A stretch of DNA of 64,000 nt from positions 48,206 to 112,205 of the forward strand of contig DBFSET010000008.1 of the NCBI GenBank assembly GCA_048416615.1. The letters are read 5' to 3'. The translations under genes were made by a program, and so were the position numbers. Positions 20,620-60,589 of the stretch are shown here, one piece after another (positions within the stretch are counted from its first letter, which is position 1; each line of letters starts with the position of its first letter). The stretch is from Collinsella sp. GTDB lineage: Bacteria; Actinomycetota; Coriobacteriia; Coriobacteriales; Coriobacteriaceae. The notes beneath the pieces are model-generated. The model saw only the letters and a list, made by a program, of their open reading frames with translations, was not told the origin of the DNA and made no database searches.

Positions 20620-20634
20620 CCGAAAGGCTTACAC

Positions 20635-21294
20635 GTGAACGAAGAACCTCAAGTCCTCTACTGCGATGCCTGGCTCATGGCCATCGACAAGCCCGCCGGC
20701 ATGATCGTCCACGGCGACGGCACCGGTGAACGCACACTTACCGACTACGCCAGCGACCTGCTGCTGGCGATGGGCGACGGCTTTGCCGCGACCGACATGC
20801 AGCCGCTCAACCGCCTGGACCGCAACACCACCGGCGTTGTGCTGTTCTCGCTCGACAAGCAGACGCAACCCGCTTTTGACCAGATGGTCATCGACCACGC
20901 CTTCGAAAAGCACTATCTGGCGCTCGCCGAGGGCAAGATCGACTGGAACGAAAAGCTCATCGACAAGCCCATCGCCCGCGACCGCCACGACAGCCGCAAG
21001 ATGCGCGTCGGTGCCAGCGGCAAGCCGTCGCAGACGCGCGTGAAGGTGCTCAAGCGCCTTAAGAGCCGTCGTGGCCTGCCCACGCGTTCGTATATCGATG
21101 TTGAGCTGCTCACCGGTCGCAAACACCAGATCCGTGTGCACCTGGCCAGCGAGCGTCACCCCCTGGTTGGCGACGACCTGTACGGAACGCCGCGCCCCTG
21201 CGGCCTGATGCTCCACGCCCACAGCGTGTCCTTCACGCATCCCGTAACCGGCGAGCACATCCACATCGAAGCCCCCTGCCCCTGGGAGCCCTAA
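20635..21294 (+). CDS. RluA-family pseudouridine synthase
   Basis: 219 aa. Catalytic block NRLDRNTTGVVLF and the HQIRVHLA motif. Starts 15 nt after the U32 gene stop. Confidence 0.9.
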   Translation: MNEEPQVLYCDAWLMAIDKPAGMIVHGDGTGERTLTDYASDLLLAMGDGFAATDMQPLNRLDRNTTGVVLFSLDKQTQPAFDQMVIDHAFEKHYLALAEGKIDWNEKLIDKPIARDRHDSRKMRVGASGKPSQTRVKVLKRLKSRRGLPTRSYIDVELLTGRKHQIRVHLASERHPLVGDDLYGTPRPCGLMLHAHSVSFTHPVTGEHIHIEAPCPWEP

Positions 21295-21333
21295 ACCACC
21301 ACAATGGGGACAGGCACCTTTGTGGTGGTTTTG
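21293..21333 (+). terminator. terminator-like hairpin after the rluA-family gene (left copy of a 41-43-bp direct repeat)
   Basis: AAACCACCACAA-tggggacaggcacct-TTGTGGTGGTTTTG begins inside the stop codon of the gene. Confidence 0.7.
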
Positions 21334-21360
21334 CCGCAATGGCCCAGCCACGGTCCCAAA

Positions 21361-21580
21361 ATGTCTCGATCTGTAACAGTTAGAACCCATTTTCCGGTCT
21401 ATCTGTTACAGATCGAGACATTCGAATCCCCCTCAAGGAAAAATCTCAATCTGTAACAGTAACTCGGCAAAATCAGTCCCAGATGTTACAGATTGAGACA
21501 AAGGGACGGCGCGGTTCGGAAGTATCTCAATCTGTAACACCTAGCCCACTTTTAACGGTCCAGTTGTTACAGACGTAGAC
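21361..21580. repeat. array of three ~80-bp units, each a 15-19-bp-stem hairpin built on TCTC[G/A]ATCTGTAACA
   Basis: Arms at 21361-21379/21403-21421 (19 bp, perfect), 21444-21458/21484-21498 (15 bp, perfect) and 21523-21539/21565-21580 (degenerate). The six arm copies alternate in orientation with about 40-bp spacing. Confidence 0.9.
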
Positions 21581-21724: not shown

Positions 21725-22471
21725 TTAGACCGTGATGACGTTGTCCATTGCCCGGTACTTGGCGGGAACCTCGCCTGCGGTAATAATCGTTGCGTCGCGG
21801 AAGTCCGCGAACTTGATGGGCGCCACCATGCCAAATTTACTGGCGTCCGAGATTACGAAGCGCTTGGCCGTATGGCGCATCGAGATACGCTTTACTTGCG
21901 CCTCCTCGATATCGGGCGCCGTGAAGCCCTGCTCGGCTGCAATGCCGTTAGAGCCCCAAAAGCCACAGTTGAAGTTGTAGCGGTCTAAGGTTGCCAAGGC
22001 ATCGGGGCCAACGAGCGCCTCGGTCTCGGGTTTGAGCTCGCCGCCCAGCACCACGGTACGCATGCCGCGCAAAGCAAGGCGCTGAGCATGGAGCACGGAA
22101 TCGGTCACATAGGTGACATCTTCAAGGTGTGGAAGATGCTCGATGAGCCTGAGCGTCGTCGAGCCCGAGTCGATGTATACAAAGCTCTCAGGCTCCACAA
22201 GCGCCGCCGCACGGGCGCAGATACGCTCCTTGTCGTCGTTATGGAGGTCGCTGCGCTCATTAAGCGTTAGGTCGCGCGTCACGTGCGCGCGCTCAAGACT
22301 CGTCGCCCCACCGTGGACCTTGGCGATACGGTGCGCTCGGTCGAGCGTCTGCAGGTCGCGCCGAATGGTAGACGCCGTCACGCCCAGGGCCTCAGCAAGC
22401 TCCGGCACGGTAACCGAGCCGGCCTGCTGCACCATCGACACGATCGCATTGAGCCTATCTTCCGCAAGCAT
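21725..22471 (-). CDS. DeoR-family transcriptional regulator
   Basis: 248 aa. N-terminal HTH RLNAIVSMVQQAGSVTVPELAEALGVTASTIRRDLQTLD plus a DeoR-type C-terminal sugar-phosphate sensor domain. Confidence 0.9.
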   Translation of the reverse strand: MLAEDRLNAIVSMVQQAGSVTVPELAEALGVTASTIRRDLQTLDRAHRIAKVHGGATSLERAHVTRDLTLNERSDLHNDDKERICARAAALVEPESFVYIDSGSTTLRLIEHLPHLEDVTYVTDSVLHAQRLALRGMRTVVLGGELKPETEALVGPDALATLDRYNFNCGFWGSNGIAAEQGFTAPDIEEAQVKRISMRHTAKRFVISDASKFGMVAPIKFADFRDATIITAGEVPAKYRAMDNVITV

Positions 22472-29230: not shown

Positions 29231-29851
29231 TTAGGCCATACGGATGGCGACGAGACCATTCTTGGCACCCGGGACAGCGCCCTTGACCAAGATGAGGTTC
29301 TGCTCGGCATCGATGCGGACAACGGAAAGGTTCTTGACGGTAACGCGCTCATTACCCATGTGACCGGCCATCTTGACGCCCTTGAGGACGCGCGCAGGAT
29401 AGGCGCACTGACCGATAGAACCGGGGTGACGCTGGAAGTGAGAACCATGCGTCATAGGACCGCGGCGCTGACCCCAGCGCTTGATGCGACCCTGGAAGCC
29501 CTTACCCTTGGAGGTACCGATGACGTCGACCTTCTCGACATCAGCGAAATCAGCGACGGTGACGACCTCGCCGACCTTGTGCTCCTCGCCGTTCTCGACG
29601 CGGACCTCACGAAGGAAACGGACAGGCTCGACGCCAGCCTTGGCGAAGTGACCAGCCATGGGCTTGTTCACGTTCTTGGCCTTGATGTCGCCGAAACCGA
29701 TCTGGACGGCGTCATAGCCGTCGGTTGCCTGAGTTTTAACCTGCGAGACAGCGCAGGGGCCAGCCTGGATGACCGTGACGGGAACGACGTTGTCGTCCTC
29801 GTCCCAAACCTGGGTCATGCCAATCTTGCGGCCGAGAATCATGCTGATCAA
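29231..29851 (-). CDS. rplC: 50S ribosomal protein L3
   Basis: M(TTG)[20 protein letters not shown]...; the alternative ATG start is at 29842. Confidence 0.96.
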
Positions 29852-30104
29852 GATATGATCCCAACTCTCGCGTGGTCTTGGGACAATGCGTACACCACCG
29901 AGCGTACGCCCCTAGAGGACCACTACTTACACGACGTGCTCCCCAGCCTTGTATTGCGTCCGGACTACCTGACAACCCTATTAAGCAGGCATTTTGTCCA
30001 GCCAGAATACTCCCCTGGTTTCACACAGCTGTTTAGTATACACGGCTGCGGGCGTATCCATCGAGATTCATATTTCACTCACATTGTTTACGCAGGTAAA
30101 GTGC

Positions 30105-30279
30105 GTGGCACGTTCCCAGTGTGCGGCGGAGGGGGCGGGCCTGAGACATATTAAGGTTGCTGCTCTACAGTCCTGCTCACGACGGAGAGCACATTAAGTG
30201 CTCTCCTGTTCGTGCGGAACTCGCGACAACCTTAATATGTCTCAGGCCCGCCCCCTCCGCCGCACACTGGGAACGCCAC
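30105..30279. repeat. long-stem hairpin element, copy 1 of 3 (49-bp perfect arms + 67-nt conserved core)
   Basis: Arms 30111-30159 and 30227-30275 are perfectly complementary. The core 30160-30226 (CTGCTCTACAGTCCTGCTCACGACGGAGAGCACATTAAGTGCTCTCCTGTTCGTGCGGAACTCGCGA) is homologous to 47434-47500 and 60397-60460. Confidence 0.92.
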
Positions 30280-30318
30280 GTTGATGTCTGCTTAACTCTG
30301 CTCGCTCAGCTAATTACT

Positions 30319-43777: not shown

Positions 43778-44086
43778 TTAGAGCTTGATGTCGATGTCGA
43801 CGCCAGCGGGGAGGTCGAGACGCATGAGCGAATCAACGGTGCCCGAGGTGGGGTCGAGGATGTCGATGAGGCGCTTGTGGGTGCGCATCTCGAACTGCTC
43901 ACGGGAGTCCTTGTTCACGTGCGGCGAGCGGATAACCGTGTACAGGTTGCGCTCGGTGGGCAGGGGGACAGGACCGGAAACGCGAGCGCCGGTCTTCTGA
44001 GCGGTCTCGACGATGAGCTTCGCGGACTGATCGACGACCTCGTGATCATAGCCCTTGAGGCGAATGCGGATCTTCTGGGTAGCCAA
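43778..44086 (-). CDS. rpsJ: 30S ribosomal protein S10
   Basis: [29 protein letters not shown]... Confidence 0.98.
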
Positions 44087-47284: not shown

Positions 47285-47313
47285 AGGATACGTGGCGTTA
47301 GCTGTGCCGTCAA
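47285..47313 (-). promoter_or_regulatory. predicted sigma-70-type promoter of the rpsL operon
   Basis: Minus-strand TTGACG (47313-47308), a 17-nt spacer, then TATCCT (47290-47285). The -10 hexamer ends about 95 nt upstream of the rpsL start. Sequence-only prediction. Confidence 0.5.
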
Positions 47314-47396
47314 CAGACCACGCCACCGGGCGTATCCTAAAATAGCCACATTTCCGCAAAGCCTACACAAAAGGAATCCCCTTCTGTGCGCGGGGG

Positions 47397-47537
47397 CGGA
47401 TTCCCGGGCCGGGCGGCCCAGGGGTTAAGTTTGCTGCTCTACAGTCCTGGCTCGCACGGAGGCCACATTAAGTGGCCTCCGGCTCGTGCGGAACTCGCGA
47501 CAAACTTAACCCCTGGGCCGCCCGGCCCGGGAATCCG
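47397..47537. repeat. long-stem hairpin element, copy 2 of 3 (37-bp perfect arms + 67-nt core)
   Basis: Arms 47397-47433 and 47501-47537 are perfectly complementary. Core 47434-47500: CTGCTCTACAGTCCTGGCTCGCACGGAGGCCACATTAAGTGGCCTCCGGCTCGTGCGGAACTCGCGA. Confidence 0.92.
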
Positions 47538-47702
47538 ACGTGCTCGTTGGGGCAACGCTACCTGCCAAAAAGAGACAGGTTTATTTTGGTCGGTTTTATC
47601 TGGGGAAACGTCGCGCTCCAGCGGTGATCTGCTCTCATCTGTCGCATGGAAATCGGCGGCGTTTTCGGAAGTATATCGCTCAGTCTAACCACCCATTTAC
47701 CG

Positions 47703-47738
47703 CAAAAGAGGCCGCTTCCCCTAGTAGGAAGCGGCCTC
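47703..47738 (-). terminator. intrinsic terminator after the anti-sigma gene
   Basis: Minus-strand GAGGCCGCTTCC-tactagg-GGAAGCGGCCTC followed by TTTTG. Confidence 0.85.
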
Positions 47739-47743
47739 AGACC

Positions 47744-49289: not shown

Positions 49290-49455
49290 AATCACCTCCC
49301 GGTGACGGTAATGATTCTTGATGAGGTCCTCACCATAGATACGCTTTGACCGAACGAAATGTTTCAAATTCAAGCAGGAATAACCTACCAAAAAAACCCT
49401 GCCCCTTATTGGCAAGGGATCGACGGAACGCAACAGGTTGAGCATACGCAAGCGA

Positions 49456-49555
49456 GCGGCCCCCAGAGCGTACAAGGTGGCATGAAAAAGGCAGGGCATT
49501 GACCTTTTGGTCATGCCCTGCCTTTTGAATGACAGATTGTAGCTCTGGGGGCCGC
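49456..49555. terminator. nested hairpin: bidirectional terminator inside a 19-bp outer stem, downstream of rpoC
   Basis: Inner AAAAGGCAGGGCAT (49486-49499) pairs with ATGCCCTGCCTTTT (49513-49526). Outer GCGGCCCCCAGAGCgTACAA (49456-49475) pairs with TTGTAGCTCTGGGGGCCGC (49537-49555). Confidence 0.75.
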
Positions 49556-49599
49556 GCAGCGACGGAGATCGCCGCCGTTCGTTAGAACGGCGGAACTAG

Positions 49600-54075
<4,476 letters not shown>

Positions 54076-54081
54076 AGTCAA

Positions 54082-57573
<3,492 letters not shown>

Positions 57574-57806
57574 CAGGTTTTTCCTCCTTCACGGAAATGC
57601 TCGGTGGGTTGGCGAGGCATGGCTTCGCCAGTTATCGCAACCTAATAGTTTATCAGGTACCGACCGTTGGGCAAGAAAAGCCTTGACGCGATTGAGTTTT
57701 TGGAGTAGCAAAGTTTTTCGACAGAAAAGGTGCAGGTAGATGGGTGTGTATCGAACATCTGTTCATATATTTTCTGTGAACAGAGGGCCGGCAATCGCAG
57801 CTCTTA

Positions 57807-60084: not shown

Positions 60085-60300
60085 GAATTACACCTCCTCG
60101 AATTCTTTCCGGGCACGGTCCGCCACAAGGACGTGACGGGGGCATGTCCAAAAAGAAAGCCCCCGCGCTGCATGAGCGACGGGGGCGAGAAGACATATCT
60201 ACTCGACCACCTCGGCTGGCGGGATATCCCATTAAGCTCGCGGGCGATGCCCGTTTGCACCGGCTGTCTCTGGCAGCGGATTCGTGCGTGAACCGAAAGT

Positions 60301-60329
60301 ATTATGGCGGGGACCCCGGCGTCGGTCAA
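60301..60329 (-). promoter_or_regulatory. predicted promoter of the rplJ-rplL operon (followed by a ~210-nt structured leader)
   Basis: Minus-strand TTGACC (60329-60324), a 17-nt spacer, then CATAAT (60306-60301). The -35 lies inside the outer stem of hairpin element copy 3. Sequence-only prediction. Confidence 0.5.
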
Positions 60330-60534
60330 CGGGCGCGAGGATTCGTACACAAACCCTGCATACGCTCCGACCGGGAGGGGCAGGGCGAGTTTTCCGCTCG
60401 GTCAAGTCCTGGGCTCGCACGAAGGCCACATTAAGTGGCCTTCGGCTCGTGCGGAATCTACGGAAAACTCGCCCTGCCCCTCCCGGCCGGAGCTACGTTG
60501 CCTTTGCTGCGAATCCTCGTGTCCGTTGGCCGAC
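60321..60534. repeat. long-stem hairpin element, copy 3 of 3 (interrupted stem, 64-nt core)
   Basis: Inner arms 60371-60396/60461-60486 (26 bp, perfect). Middle stem CGAGGATTCG 60336-60345 / CGAATCCTCG 60510-60519. Outer stem 60321-60332/60523-60534 (one T.G pair). Core 60397-60460. Confidence 0.9.
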
Positions 60535-60589
60535 GCGCCCCACTCATAATGCTTGGGTCGGTGGGCTGATGGTTTTGGGTCCCGTTGGG

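Follow-up and report, generated by a model that had tools for sequence, protein, structure and literature searches.

A previously undescribed family of palindromic repeats, similar in kind to the REP, ERIC and Correia elements of other bacteria, is dispersed over intergenic regions of Collinsella. Three of its copies lie in the stretch of DNA analysed here, 64,000 nucleotides (nt) of Collinsella sp. (GenBank assembly GCA_048416615.1, contig DBFSET010000008.1, positions 48,206 to 112,205 of the forward strand), which we refer to as the window. The family is characterised by a reversed conservation pattern (a conserved centre between arms that are specific to each locus), by inversion of the centre, and by a polarity rule that ties the orientation of an element to its position among the neighbouring genes. 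Its members are multi-copy, intergenic and palindromic, occur in one clade and have no coding capacity, as is expected of dispersed intergenic palindromic repeats; the element is described neither in Rfam nor in the searchable literature on Collinsella inverted repeats and invertons. An earlier note on this DNA, made by a model from the sequence alone, had pointed to three long hairpins with a shared core; the polarity rule, the inversion and the many arm alleles found at a single locus go beyond it.

Three copies in the window

The three-copy family, its coordinates, the 49-bp arms of copy 1 and the shared centre, all of which had been proposed in the earlier note, were confirmed by a repeat search, a scan for conserved blocks and a covariance model. 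The model was built from 36 family members and run on the window with filters off; it found exactly three copies, at 92-106 bits, the next non-self match being an unrelated hairpin at 20 bits. The blocks CACATTAAGTG-N9-TCGTGCGGAA occur three times in the window, always on the + strand, and never in 100 shuffles. In the following, the + orientation of an element is that of the window + strand, on which the core reads CTGCTC...CTCGCGA. The parts of the three copies and their neighbouring genes are as follows.

30104..30280, + strand: copy 1, whole palindrome, 92 bits, antisense to the surrounding minus-strand genes
30111..30159: copy 1, left arm, 49 nt, 100% complementary to 30227-30275
30227..30275: copy 1, right arm, 49 nt
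30160..30226, + strand: copy 1, centre of type A, asymmetric, 67 nt, with the invariant blocks GTCCTG and GTGCGGAA
30184-30192 / 30198-30206: copy 1, apical stem, with the ATTAA loop at 30193-30197
30319: stop of the His_Phos_1 gene beside copy 1; rplC lies downstream
47373..47558, + strand: copy 2, whole unit, 106 bits, outer pairing imperfect
47397-47433 / 47501-47537: copy 2, arms, 37 nt, 100% complementary, around the 67-nt centre at 47434-47500
47744: stop of the DUF4179 gene beside copy 2; rpsL lies downstream
60298..60555, + strand: copy 3, whole unit, 92 bits
60364-60396 / 60461-60493: copy 3, inner arms, 33 nt, 97% complementary, around the 64-nt centre of type C at 60397-60460
60319-60345 / 60510-60536: copy 3, outer inverted repeat
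60590: stop of the aminotransferase gene beside copy 3; rplJ lies downstream

Pairing at copy 1 extends beyond the previously recognised arms by five extra pairs (30104-30108 / 30276-30280). Its left arm is G-rich distal to the centre and AT-rich (ATATTAAGGTTG) beside it, and the element with identical arms also occurs in L028, L046, L059, L073, L078 and L111 (L-numbers are labels of individual contigs or sequences that carry or lack family copies). The outer limits of copy 2 were set from a paralogous insertion in L112. The apical stems of the three copies are GGAGAGCAC, GGAGGCCAC and GAAGGCCAC, each with its exact complement, forming 9 bp around the loop ATTAA, so that the compensatory versions described earlier read as stated. 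All three copies share one orientation, and each has the stop of a minus-strand gene on one side and a ribosomal-protein (r-protein) operon downstream on the other, again as the earlier note had observed.

Census and range of the family

Species-representative genomes were scanned with an exact two-block pattern of the centre, which yielded at least 120 matches; the counts given below are among the matches listed. Nearly all of these belong to Collinsella/Coriobacteriaceae, the rest being a few unnamed bins and one contig labelled Methanobrevibacter. The latter (L075, CAVHBE010000073.1), a 4-kb contig binned as Methanobrevibacter smithii, contains a copy of typical Collinsella type, whose flanks are those of L011, L027 and L087, and is a case of bin contamination. 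With arms of at least 15 nt required, 116 elements were extracted; their arms have a median of 31 nt (range 15-49), and 109 of the 116 have at most two mismatches. Arm similarity divides them into 35 groups, which merge by their flanks into about 27 distinct orthologous intergenic loci. Element length across the family is 110-260 bp, and a profile hidden Markov model of the centre found 15 further, more diverged copies. At least 13 matches have the centre at a contig terminus; the repeat therefore breaks assemblies.

No copy was found in the 20 kb around rplJ of four more distant relatives (Enorma phocaeensis, C. vaginalis, Collinsella sp. zg1085 and an An7-like genome), which suggests that the family is limited to the C. 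aerofaciens-like part of the genus. A phage origin was considered and rejected: viral contigs gave only two matches, both representing a host locus downstream of a 726-aa gene.

Conserved centre, locus-specific arms

Throughout the family the centre is asymmetric and measures ~65 bp, with invariant GTCCTG and GTGCGGAA blocks and a 9-bp apical stem closed by CAC/GTG around ATTAA; loop variants (ATTTA, ATTGA, or a 3-nt loop on a different stem) are rare. At least nine sequence versions of the apical stem occur, with the exact complement kept in each, and a second helix shows compensated changes in shifting registers (CACGA/TCGTG, GCACG/CGTGC, CGCAA/TTGCG, TGCAA/TTGCA). The arms are locus-specific, their outer ends differing at every locus, and it is their complementarity within each copy alone that is kept; among aligned family members the last 8-10 bp of the arm beside the centre are AT-rich, with a consensus around TAAGGTT. 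RNAalifold folds the whole element into a single irregular rod. On this structure 97.6% of cells are paired, as opposed to 76.9% in shuffles, changes on both sides affect 22 of the 33 pairs, and none of 500 shuffles reached the observed paired percentage or covariation score. Within arm-defined groups, 280 positions differ in both arms and 121 in one arm only.

Orthologous pairs, sorted into bins, have arm and flank identities of 0.80/0.82, 0.91/0.88 and 0.97/0.92, while their centres are 0.94-0.99 identical, above both arms and flanks. The arms of orthologues thus change at the rate of their flanks, and those of paralogues have diverged to saturation. At the copy-1 locus at least four alignable arm alleles, each of them self-complementary, are found amid almost invariant flanks. 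This locus (flanks ~97-100% identical, arms 60-70%) had suggested that the arms are hypervariable, a notion that was abandoned in view of the family-wide rate; the flanks of copy 1 are a conserved 5' region and a gene end. Concerted evolution of the centres within genomes was likewise ruled out. Centre types follow the locus and not the genome, and the similarity between the centres of old paralogues is therefore better explained by site-by-site constraint than by exchange between copies.

Arm pairing and inversion of the centre

The covariation reported in the earlier note is borne out by the shuffles and by the family alignment, but it does not serve as proof of an RNA, because correction at the DNA level produces the same pattern; the arms are strictly Watson-Crick paired, the two strands fold equally well and the centre inverts. 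Unique arm mismatches comprise 12 G·T/T·G, 17 A·C/C·A and 37 others, so that wobble pairs are tolerated no more than other mismatches, on either strand. The mean fold energy of 54 distinct centres is -33.4 kcal/mol for one strand and -33.1 kcal/mol for the other. Neither the mismatch spectrum nor two-strand folding gave an answer when used to choose an RNA strand.

The centre can invert. Between the isolates C. aerofaciens ATCC 25986 (L106) and CLA-JM-H32 (L005) a 36-nt centre is exactly inverted, and a single arm mismatch has moved to the opposite arm together with it, as predicted by an inversion with breakpoints in the arms. For the copy-1 site, the left flank of copy 1 was used as query in a metagenome survey that covered at least 120 assemblies. 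The inverted centre is present in 6 of ~64 (~9%) complete, self-consistent assemblies of this site, on three arm alleles; L101 and L109 likewise possess the flanks and arms of copy 1 with a centre exactly reverse-complemented relative to the window. The isolate pair is a clean case of inversion; for the metagenome cases there is an assembly caveat.

Template switching between the arms of inverted repeats perfects imperfect repeats and inverts the spacer between them, according to two published accounts (PMC5941160; PMC8604942). Together with the lack of a G·T excess, the equal folding of both strands and the inversion of the centre, this mechanism strongly indicates that arm complementarity is kept by copying at the DNA level and not by selection on RNA pairs.

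Several contigs display aberrant forms of the element. Arms from different alleles or loci are combined within one element in L089, L134, L135, L207, L004:6717-6782, L140 and L167, and further in L176, L181, L200, L206 and L241. The breakpoints lie inside the shared centre, often in the apical loop, and some of these contigs run into another locus (L140 continues beside what we take, by eye, to be an RNase P RNA). Most are probably assembly chimeras caused by the repeat, although real recombination between copies may also be represented. At the copy-1 locus of the metagenome contigs L131, L147 and L138, most of the palindrome is deleted and part of one arm is joined to the right flank. Long palindromes are known to be unstable, and these deletions are consistent with such instability or with assembly collapse.

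Position and orientation among genes

Position and orientation of the elements are tightly linked across the family. A stop codon adjoins the element at 26 loci, of which 15 are sense, with the nearest stop on the 5' side at 5-46 nt, and 11 are antisense, with the sole or nearest stop on the 3' side at 35-316 nt. The two distance ranges overlap only through copy 1 (35-43 nt), which is also the main locus of centre inversions. Elements almost never occur between divergent genes. A lenient scan of our own (the standard terminator scan is stricter) found a hairpin followed by a T-run after the element, on the + strand, in 12 of 19 sense groups, mostly 54-122 nt onward; in six antisense groups such a hairpin separates the element from the upstream stop, as it does by eye at copy 2. 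The T fraction of the 20 nt past the 3' arm is 0.32 on the + strand versus 0.21 on the other strand (Wilcoxon p = 0.007, n = 27 loci).

The earlier note had linked the elements to r-protein operons. This link reflects the gene content of the window and was rejected as a specificity of the family: only 3 of about 27 loci are r-protein sites, and at ~20 loci the neighbours are unrelated housekeeping genes (valS, clpX, metK, pnp, rnj, polA, gyrA, murB, HPr/PTS, tsaD, cstA, a GTPase). We also discarded the idea that orientation follows the direction of replication, as valS is flanked on both sides by oppositely oriented copies and three close pairs of copies face each other. A small open reading frame starting from the GTG of the apical stem was dismissed as well, since its downstream codons are those of the variable arm and, by eye, no conserved peptide results.

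Signals around the window copies

Promoter-like sites and hairpins beside copies 2 and 3 are listed below.

47285..47313, - strand: rpsL promoter-like site, TTGACG-17-TATCCT, ~60-80 nt downstream of copy 2 in gene direction
47560..47589, + strand: hairpin and T-run (ACCTGcCAAAAAGAGaCAGGT TTATTTTGG) directly after copy 2, recognised by eye and by our own scan
47697..47740, - strand: hairpin followed by TTTT, between the stop of the DUF4179 gene and copy 2, recognised by eye
60301..60329, - strand: rplJ promoter-like site, TTGACC-17-CATAAT, 10/12 matches, inside the outer left arm of copy 3

The hairpin at 47560-47589 fails the stricter terminator scan on account of its loop (>8 nt), and that at 47697-47740 because only 4 of 8 tail bases are T. 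A hairpin with T-run likewise follows the paralogous copies in L004/L069, and the layout seen at 47697-47740, with stop, T-run hairpin and antisense copy in this order, recurs at five other antisense loci in our own scan. The hexamers of the rplJ promoter-like site are mirrored, by eye, on the + strand in the outer right arm of copy 3, where their spacer is 13 nt and the site is probably dead. This arrangement suggests that the palindrome of copy 3 grew outward over the rplJ promoter-like site, or that hairpin formation could sequester it. A sub-threshold match to the L10 leader (60144-60291, - strand) lies just downstream of the same site. Within the centre and the AT-rich part of the arm the promoter scan found no promoter; there are only weak matches by eye.

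An open reading frame of 102 aa, which matches rpsJ in size and position only, is located at 43778-44086 after fusA, ~14 kb from rplC (29231-29851), with unrelated genes (cation efflux, phosphatase and others) in between. The usual S10 operon thus appears to be split in the window, with copy 1 at the new upstream border of its rplC part.

Origin of new copies

A paralogue of copy 2, together with ~25 nt from beyond its arms, occupies L112:3179-3293, whereas L064, L116 and L118 have an empty site there. The insertion is situated between two hairpin/T-run terminators downstream of rpoC. In this comparison of one filled/empty pair no target duplication is visible, and the left junction shares, by eye, a T-run or short microhomology with the donor. 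Insertion of centres into pre-existing hairpins was rejected as a mode of origin: there is no case of the same arms lacking a centre, and the L112 insertion carried arms and outer flanks with it.

The equivalent site of the window (49440-49570) is occupied by a different long imperfect hairpin, with arms of ~45 nt and no family centre, and ahead of it a short hairpin, CCGCCGTTC...GAACGGCGG, immediately follows the stop codon. A comparable unit of two hairpins takes the place of the left half of a family copy at L070:1955-2220. These hairpins may constitute a second repeat family, and the site downstream of rpoC may be an insertion hotspot.

Comparison with known elements

Rfam 15, whose families include 6S, SRP, Y RNA and r-protein leaders, gave no match at gathering thresholds anywhere in the window, in keeping with the earlier statement that the element is no named RNA family. 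In E-value mode (E <= 10) the three copies gave sub-threshold matches to microRNA families, Metazoa_SRP (21 bits) and YrlA (15 bits), which are noise expected of long hairpins; the Metazoa_SRP match, to 47395-47573 (- strand) of copy 2, has 21 bits compared with a gathering score of 70. Centres of type C have the 10-mer GGTCAGGTCC in common with E. coli 4.5S RNA, presumably a chance resemblance of rod-like hairpins rather than a sign of descent from SRP RNA. The candidate RNA motif Collinsella-1 (RF01700), which was described for Collinsella and for metagenomes of the human gut (Weinberg et al. 2010, PMC2864571), was not among the cmscan matches of the three copies, even with E <= 10 allowed.

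REP and BIME sequences of Enterobacteria and Pseudomonas are co-transcribed, protect mRNA 3' ends and bind gyrase or IHF, and REPINs are long hairpins composed of two inverted REPs. Like these, the Collinsella elements are dispersed intergenic palindromes, usually found after stops and between convergent genes. However, in REP and REPIN the arms are conserved (with a GTAG motif) and the loop varies, whereas in Collinsella the centre is conserved and the arms, which contain no invariant GTAG/CTAC, are locus-specific; the Collinsella elements are also longer, by a factor of three to five. A RAYT gene was not seen, although no test aimed at RAYT was made.

ERIC (IRU) elements are imperfect palindromes of ~126 bp that occur in dozens of copies in transcribed intergenic regions of one bacterial group, without a transposase. 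They share with the Collinsella family the long palindrome, the multiple intergenic copies in either orientation and the restriction to one clade, but are conserved along their whole length, locus-specific and perfectly paired arms are not reported for them, and no sequence similarity between the two was found. The Correia (NEMIS) elements of Neisseria are hairpin repeats of 100-155 bp with a central IHF site, which are co-transcribed, are cut by RNase III and can have promoter or terminator activity. Conserved terminal inverted repeats like theirs (26 bp) are absent from the Collinsella family, and the TA target duplication that also marks them has no visible counterpart at the one insertion compared.

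Intrinsic terminators, including the U-tract-poor hairpins predicted in Actinobacteria, resemble the Collinsella elements in having a GC-rich hairpin shortly after a stop, with a T-enriched tail on the sense strand. The stems of the family, however, are 25-49 bp long and bear a structured tip of 65 nt, a standard U-tract is lacking, and separate T-run hairpins exist in the same spacers. The terminator scan accordingly found no short GC-rich stem-loop with U-tract at the three copies, the tail over the family is T-enriched only, and the earlier note had been right to set ordinary terminators aside. Finally, perfect but unconserved arms, mirrored changes and a spacer found both ways round are also features of plastid hairpin-loop inversions and of template-switch systems (PMC5941160, PMC8604942). 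There, generic mutational processes act on single loci, while in Collinsella they would concern a repeat family with a constrained 65-bp spacer.

Proposed role and alternative explanations

For the function of the family we infer, with about even confidence, a REP/ERIC-like transcribed palindromic repeat that acts as a polar hairpin at transcript 3' ends or as an insulator, its centre being read by a putative factor. Template switching or recombination between the two arms of one element is strongly indicated as the process that copies a change in one arm onto the other and occasionally inverts the centre; among the four options offered in the earlier note, that of homogenised stems fits best. 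Sense copies, lying in the 3' untranslated region (UTR), would form a very stable hairpin in the + strand RNA, with a U/G-rich tail and often ahead of a T-run hairpin. Antisense copies would be placed beyond the downstream hairpin of a gene and before the next promoter, facing backward transcription from that promoter. Most likely, the element would then delimit or protect the 3' ends of transcripts and keep adjacent units, such as the three highly expressed r-protein operons, insulated, while the conserved centre could be the recognition site of a putative protein or nuclease, e.g. RNase III or a hairpin-binding factor. New copies would be rare and would arise by copying of the whole unit, not by cut-and-paste transposition.

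Several observations weigh against this explanation. The T enrichment of the tail is modest (0.32 vs 0.21), and the terminator scan found no canonical U-tract directly after the hairpin at the three copies. The orientation rule was derived with a simple gene caller of our own, Pfam backing only ~20 of the loci, and the reason why antisense copies all point away from the downstream gene is guessed. A single presence/absence polymorphism was found (L112 versus L064, L116 and L118). The apical part of the centre is lost at one locus in several genomes, including the type strain, and the centre is therefore not indispensable everywhere. As to the metagenome inversions, common assembler k-mers are about as long as the arms (45-49 bp), another six contigs with an apparent flip prove to be joined to other loci, and the arms do not match each other in L089, L134, L135, L207 and L004; some of these inversions may therefore be assembly ambiguities or other artefacts.

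Four other explanations rank lower. A structured non-coding RNA, either a cis-regulatory 3'-UTR element or a source of small RNAs, in which selection acts on folding and the core is of ligand-, protein- or ribozyme-type, is unlikely in our view. It would account for the covariation in arms, second helix and apical stem (in the second helix, for example, CGCAA/TTGCG is replaced by TGCAA/TTGCA in L092), for GTCCTG, ATTAA and GTGCGGAA, which are unpaired yet invariant, and for the strict gene-relative orientation, the T-rich 3' tail and the hairpin with T-run downstream of many copies. Yet the arms show no tolerance for G·U pairs, neither strand folds better than the other, the centre is inverted in situ, and at 11 of 26 loci the element runs antisense to the genes beside it, in several cases beyond a hairpin with T-run; moreover, the apical deletion at one locus spares the hairpin, Rfam gives no match, and perfect stems of 49 bp are atypical of functional RNAs. 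Strict Watson-Crick pairing and the equivalence of the strands would rather suit a protein-binding or cruciform element acting as DNA, which would present the centre at the tip of the palindrome to a nucleoid, topoisomerase or hairpin-binding protein and would act on supercoiling; a role of this kind around strongly transcribed units has been proposed for REP/BIME and gyrase. Such an element, which we hold to be doubtful, would also agree with the conserved unpaired blocks, the AT-rich arm ends beside the centre, and the location of copies just upstream of promoter-like sites of strong operons and between convergent genes. A symmetric function, however, predicts neither the orientation rule nor the asymmetric T-rich tail, and there is no candidate protein.

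Inversion of the centre raises the question of a switch. In an inverton-like version, to which we attach very little probability, the centre would carry a promoter or terminator signal whose flip alters the adjacent operon, e.g. rplC. A segment flanked by inverted repeats does occur either way round, as the copy-1 locus shows with three or more arm alleles (given the assembly caveat for the metagenome cases), copy 1 is the sole breaker of the distance rule as well as the main flip locus, and the two most conserved blocks on the reverse strand read, by eye, TTCCGC-17 nt-TAATGT, with promoter-like spacing. TTCCGC is nevertheless a poor -35 hexamer, the promoter scan finds no promoter in the element, and the promoter-like sites of the rpsL and rplJ operons are located outside the centre. 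At most loci the orientation is fixed in all sampled genomes, the flips are found mainly at the longest arms, as for a passive by-product of the palindrome, and no recombinase gene was present among the neighbour genes scanned or beside any copy examined. An orientation-dependent hairpin module that is read through its conserved centre by a dedicated Collinsella factor, and in which recombinase-free inversion of the centre at long arms, such as those upstream of the rplC operon, would provide a heritable switch blocking transcription from the upstream gene or passing it into an r-protein operon, is improbable in our estimation. The least probable explanation is an ordinary non-autonomous transposon, i.e. 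a miniature inverted-repeat transposable element (MITE), that was recently spread by a transposase. The multiple copies, the centres at contig ends (at least 13 loci) and the one presence/absence polymorphism might be read in this way, but a plain MITE with identical arms, which the earlier note had named as a refutation of its proposal, is contradicted by terminal sequences that differ at every locus and leave no conserved terminal inverted repeats. In addition, the sole insertion is without visible target duplication, orthologous positions are occupied across many Collinsella species, paralogue arms are saturated while orthologue arms change at flank rate, and, as the earlier note had found, there is no transposase nearby (none among ~40 neighbouring genes scanned).

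Other features of the window

Two further observations concern the window alone. Inverted and direct repeats based on TCTCGATCTGTAACAG cluster at 21360-21547, in the spacer that separates two minus-strand genes (20629-21390 and 21725-22471); they have the appearance of an operator array or of some other repeat without relation to the palindrome family. Antisense to rpoB/rpoC there is an open frame of 2628 aa (49759-57645, + strand), which is due to the high G+C content.

Implications

Collinsella is among the most prevalent and species-rich Actinobacteria of the human gut, and a repeat found beside essential genes at about 25 fixed sites probably influences the insulation of operons and the ends of transcripts in this genus. 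The link between position and orientation provides a directly testable handle on its function. For the analysis of strains and metagenome-assembled genomes it matters that the repeat damages public assemblies through contig breaks, chimeric joins and possibly mis-oriented centres; its multi-allelic, locus-specific arms, on the other hand, could serve as strain markers. Beyond Collinsella, the family represents a natural case in which the correction of a DNA palindrome mimics the covariation of an RNA, and calls for caution in motif-discovery pipelines.

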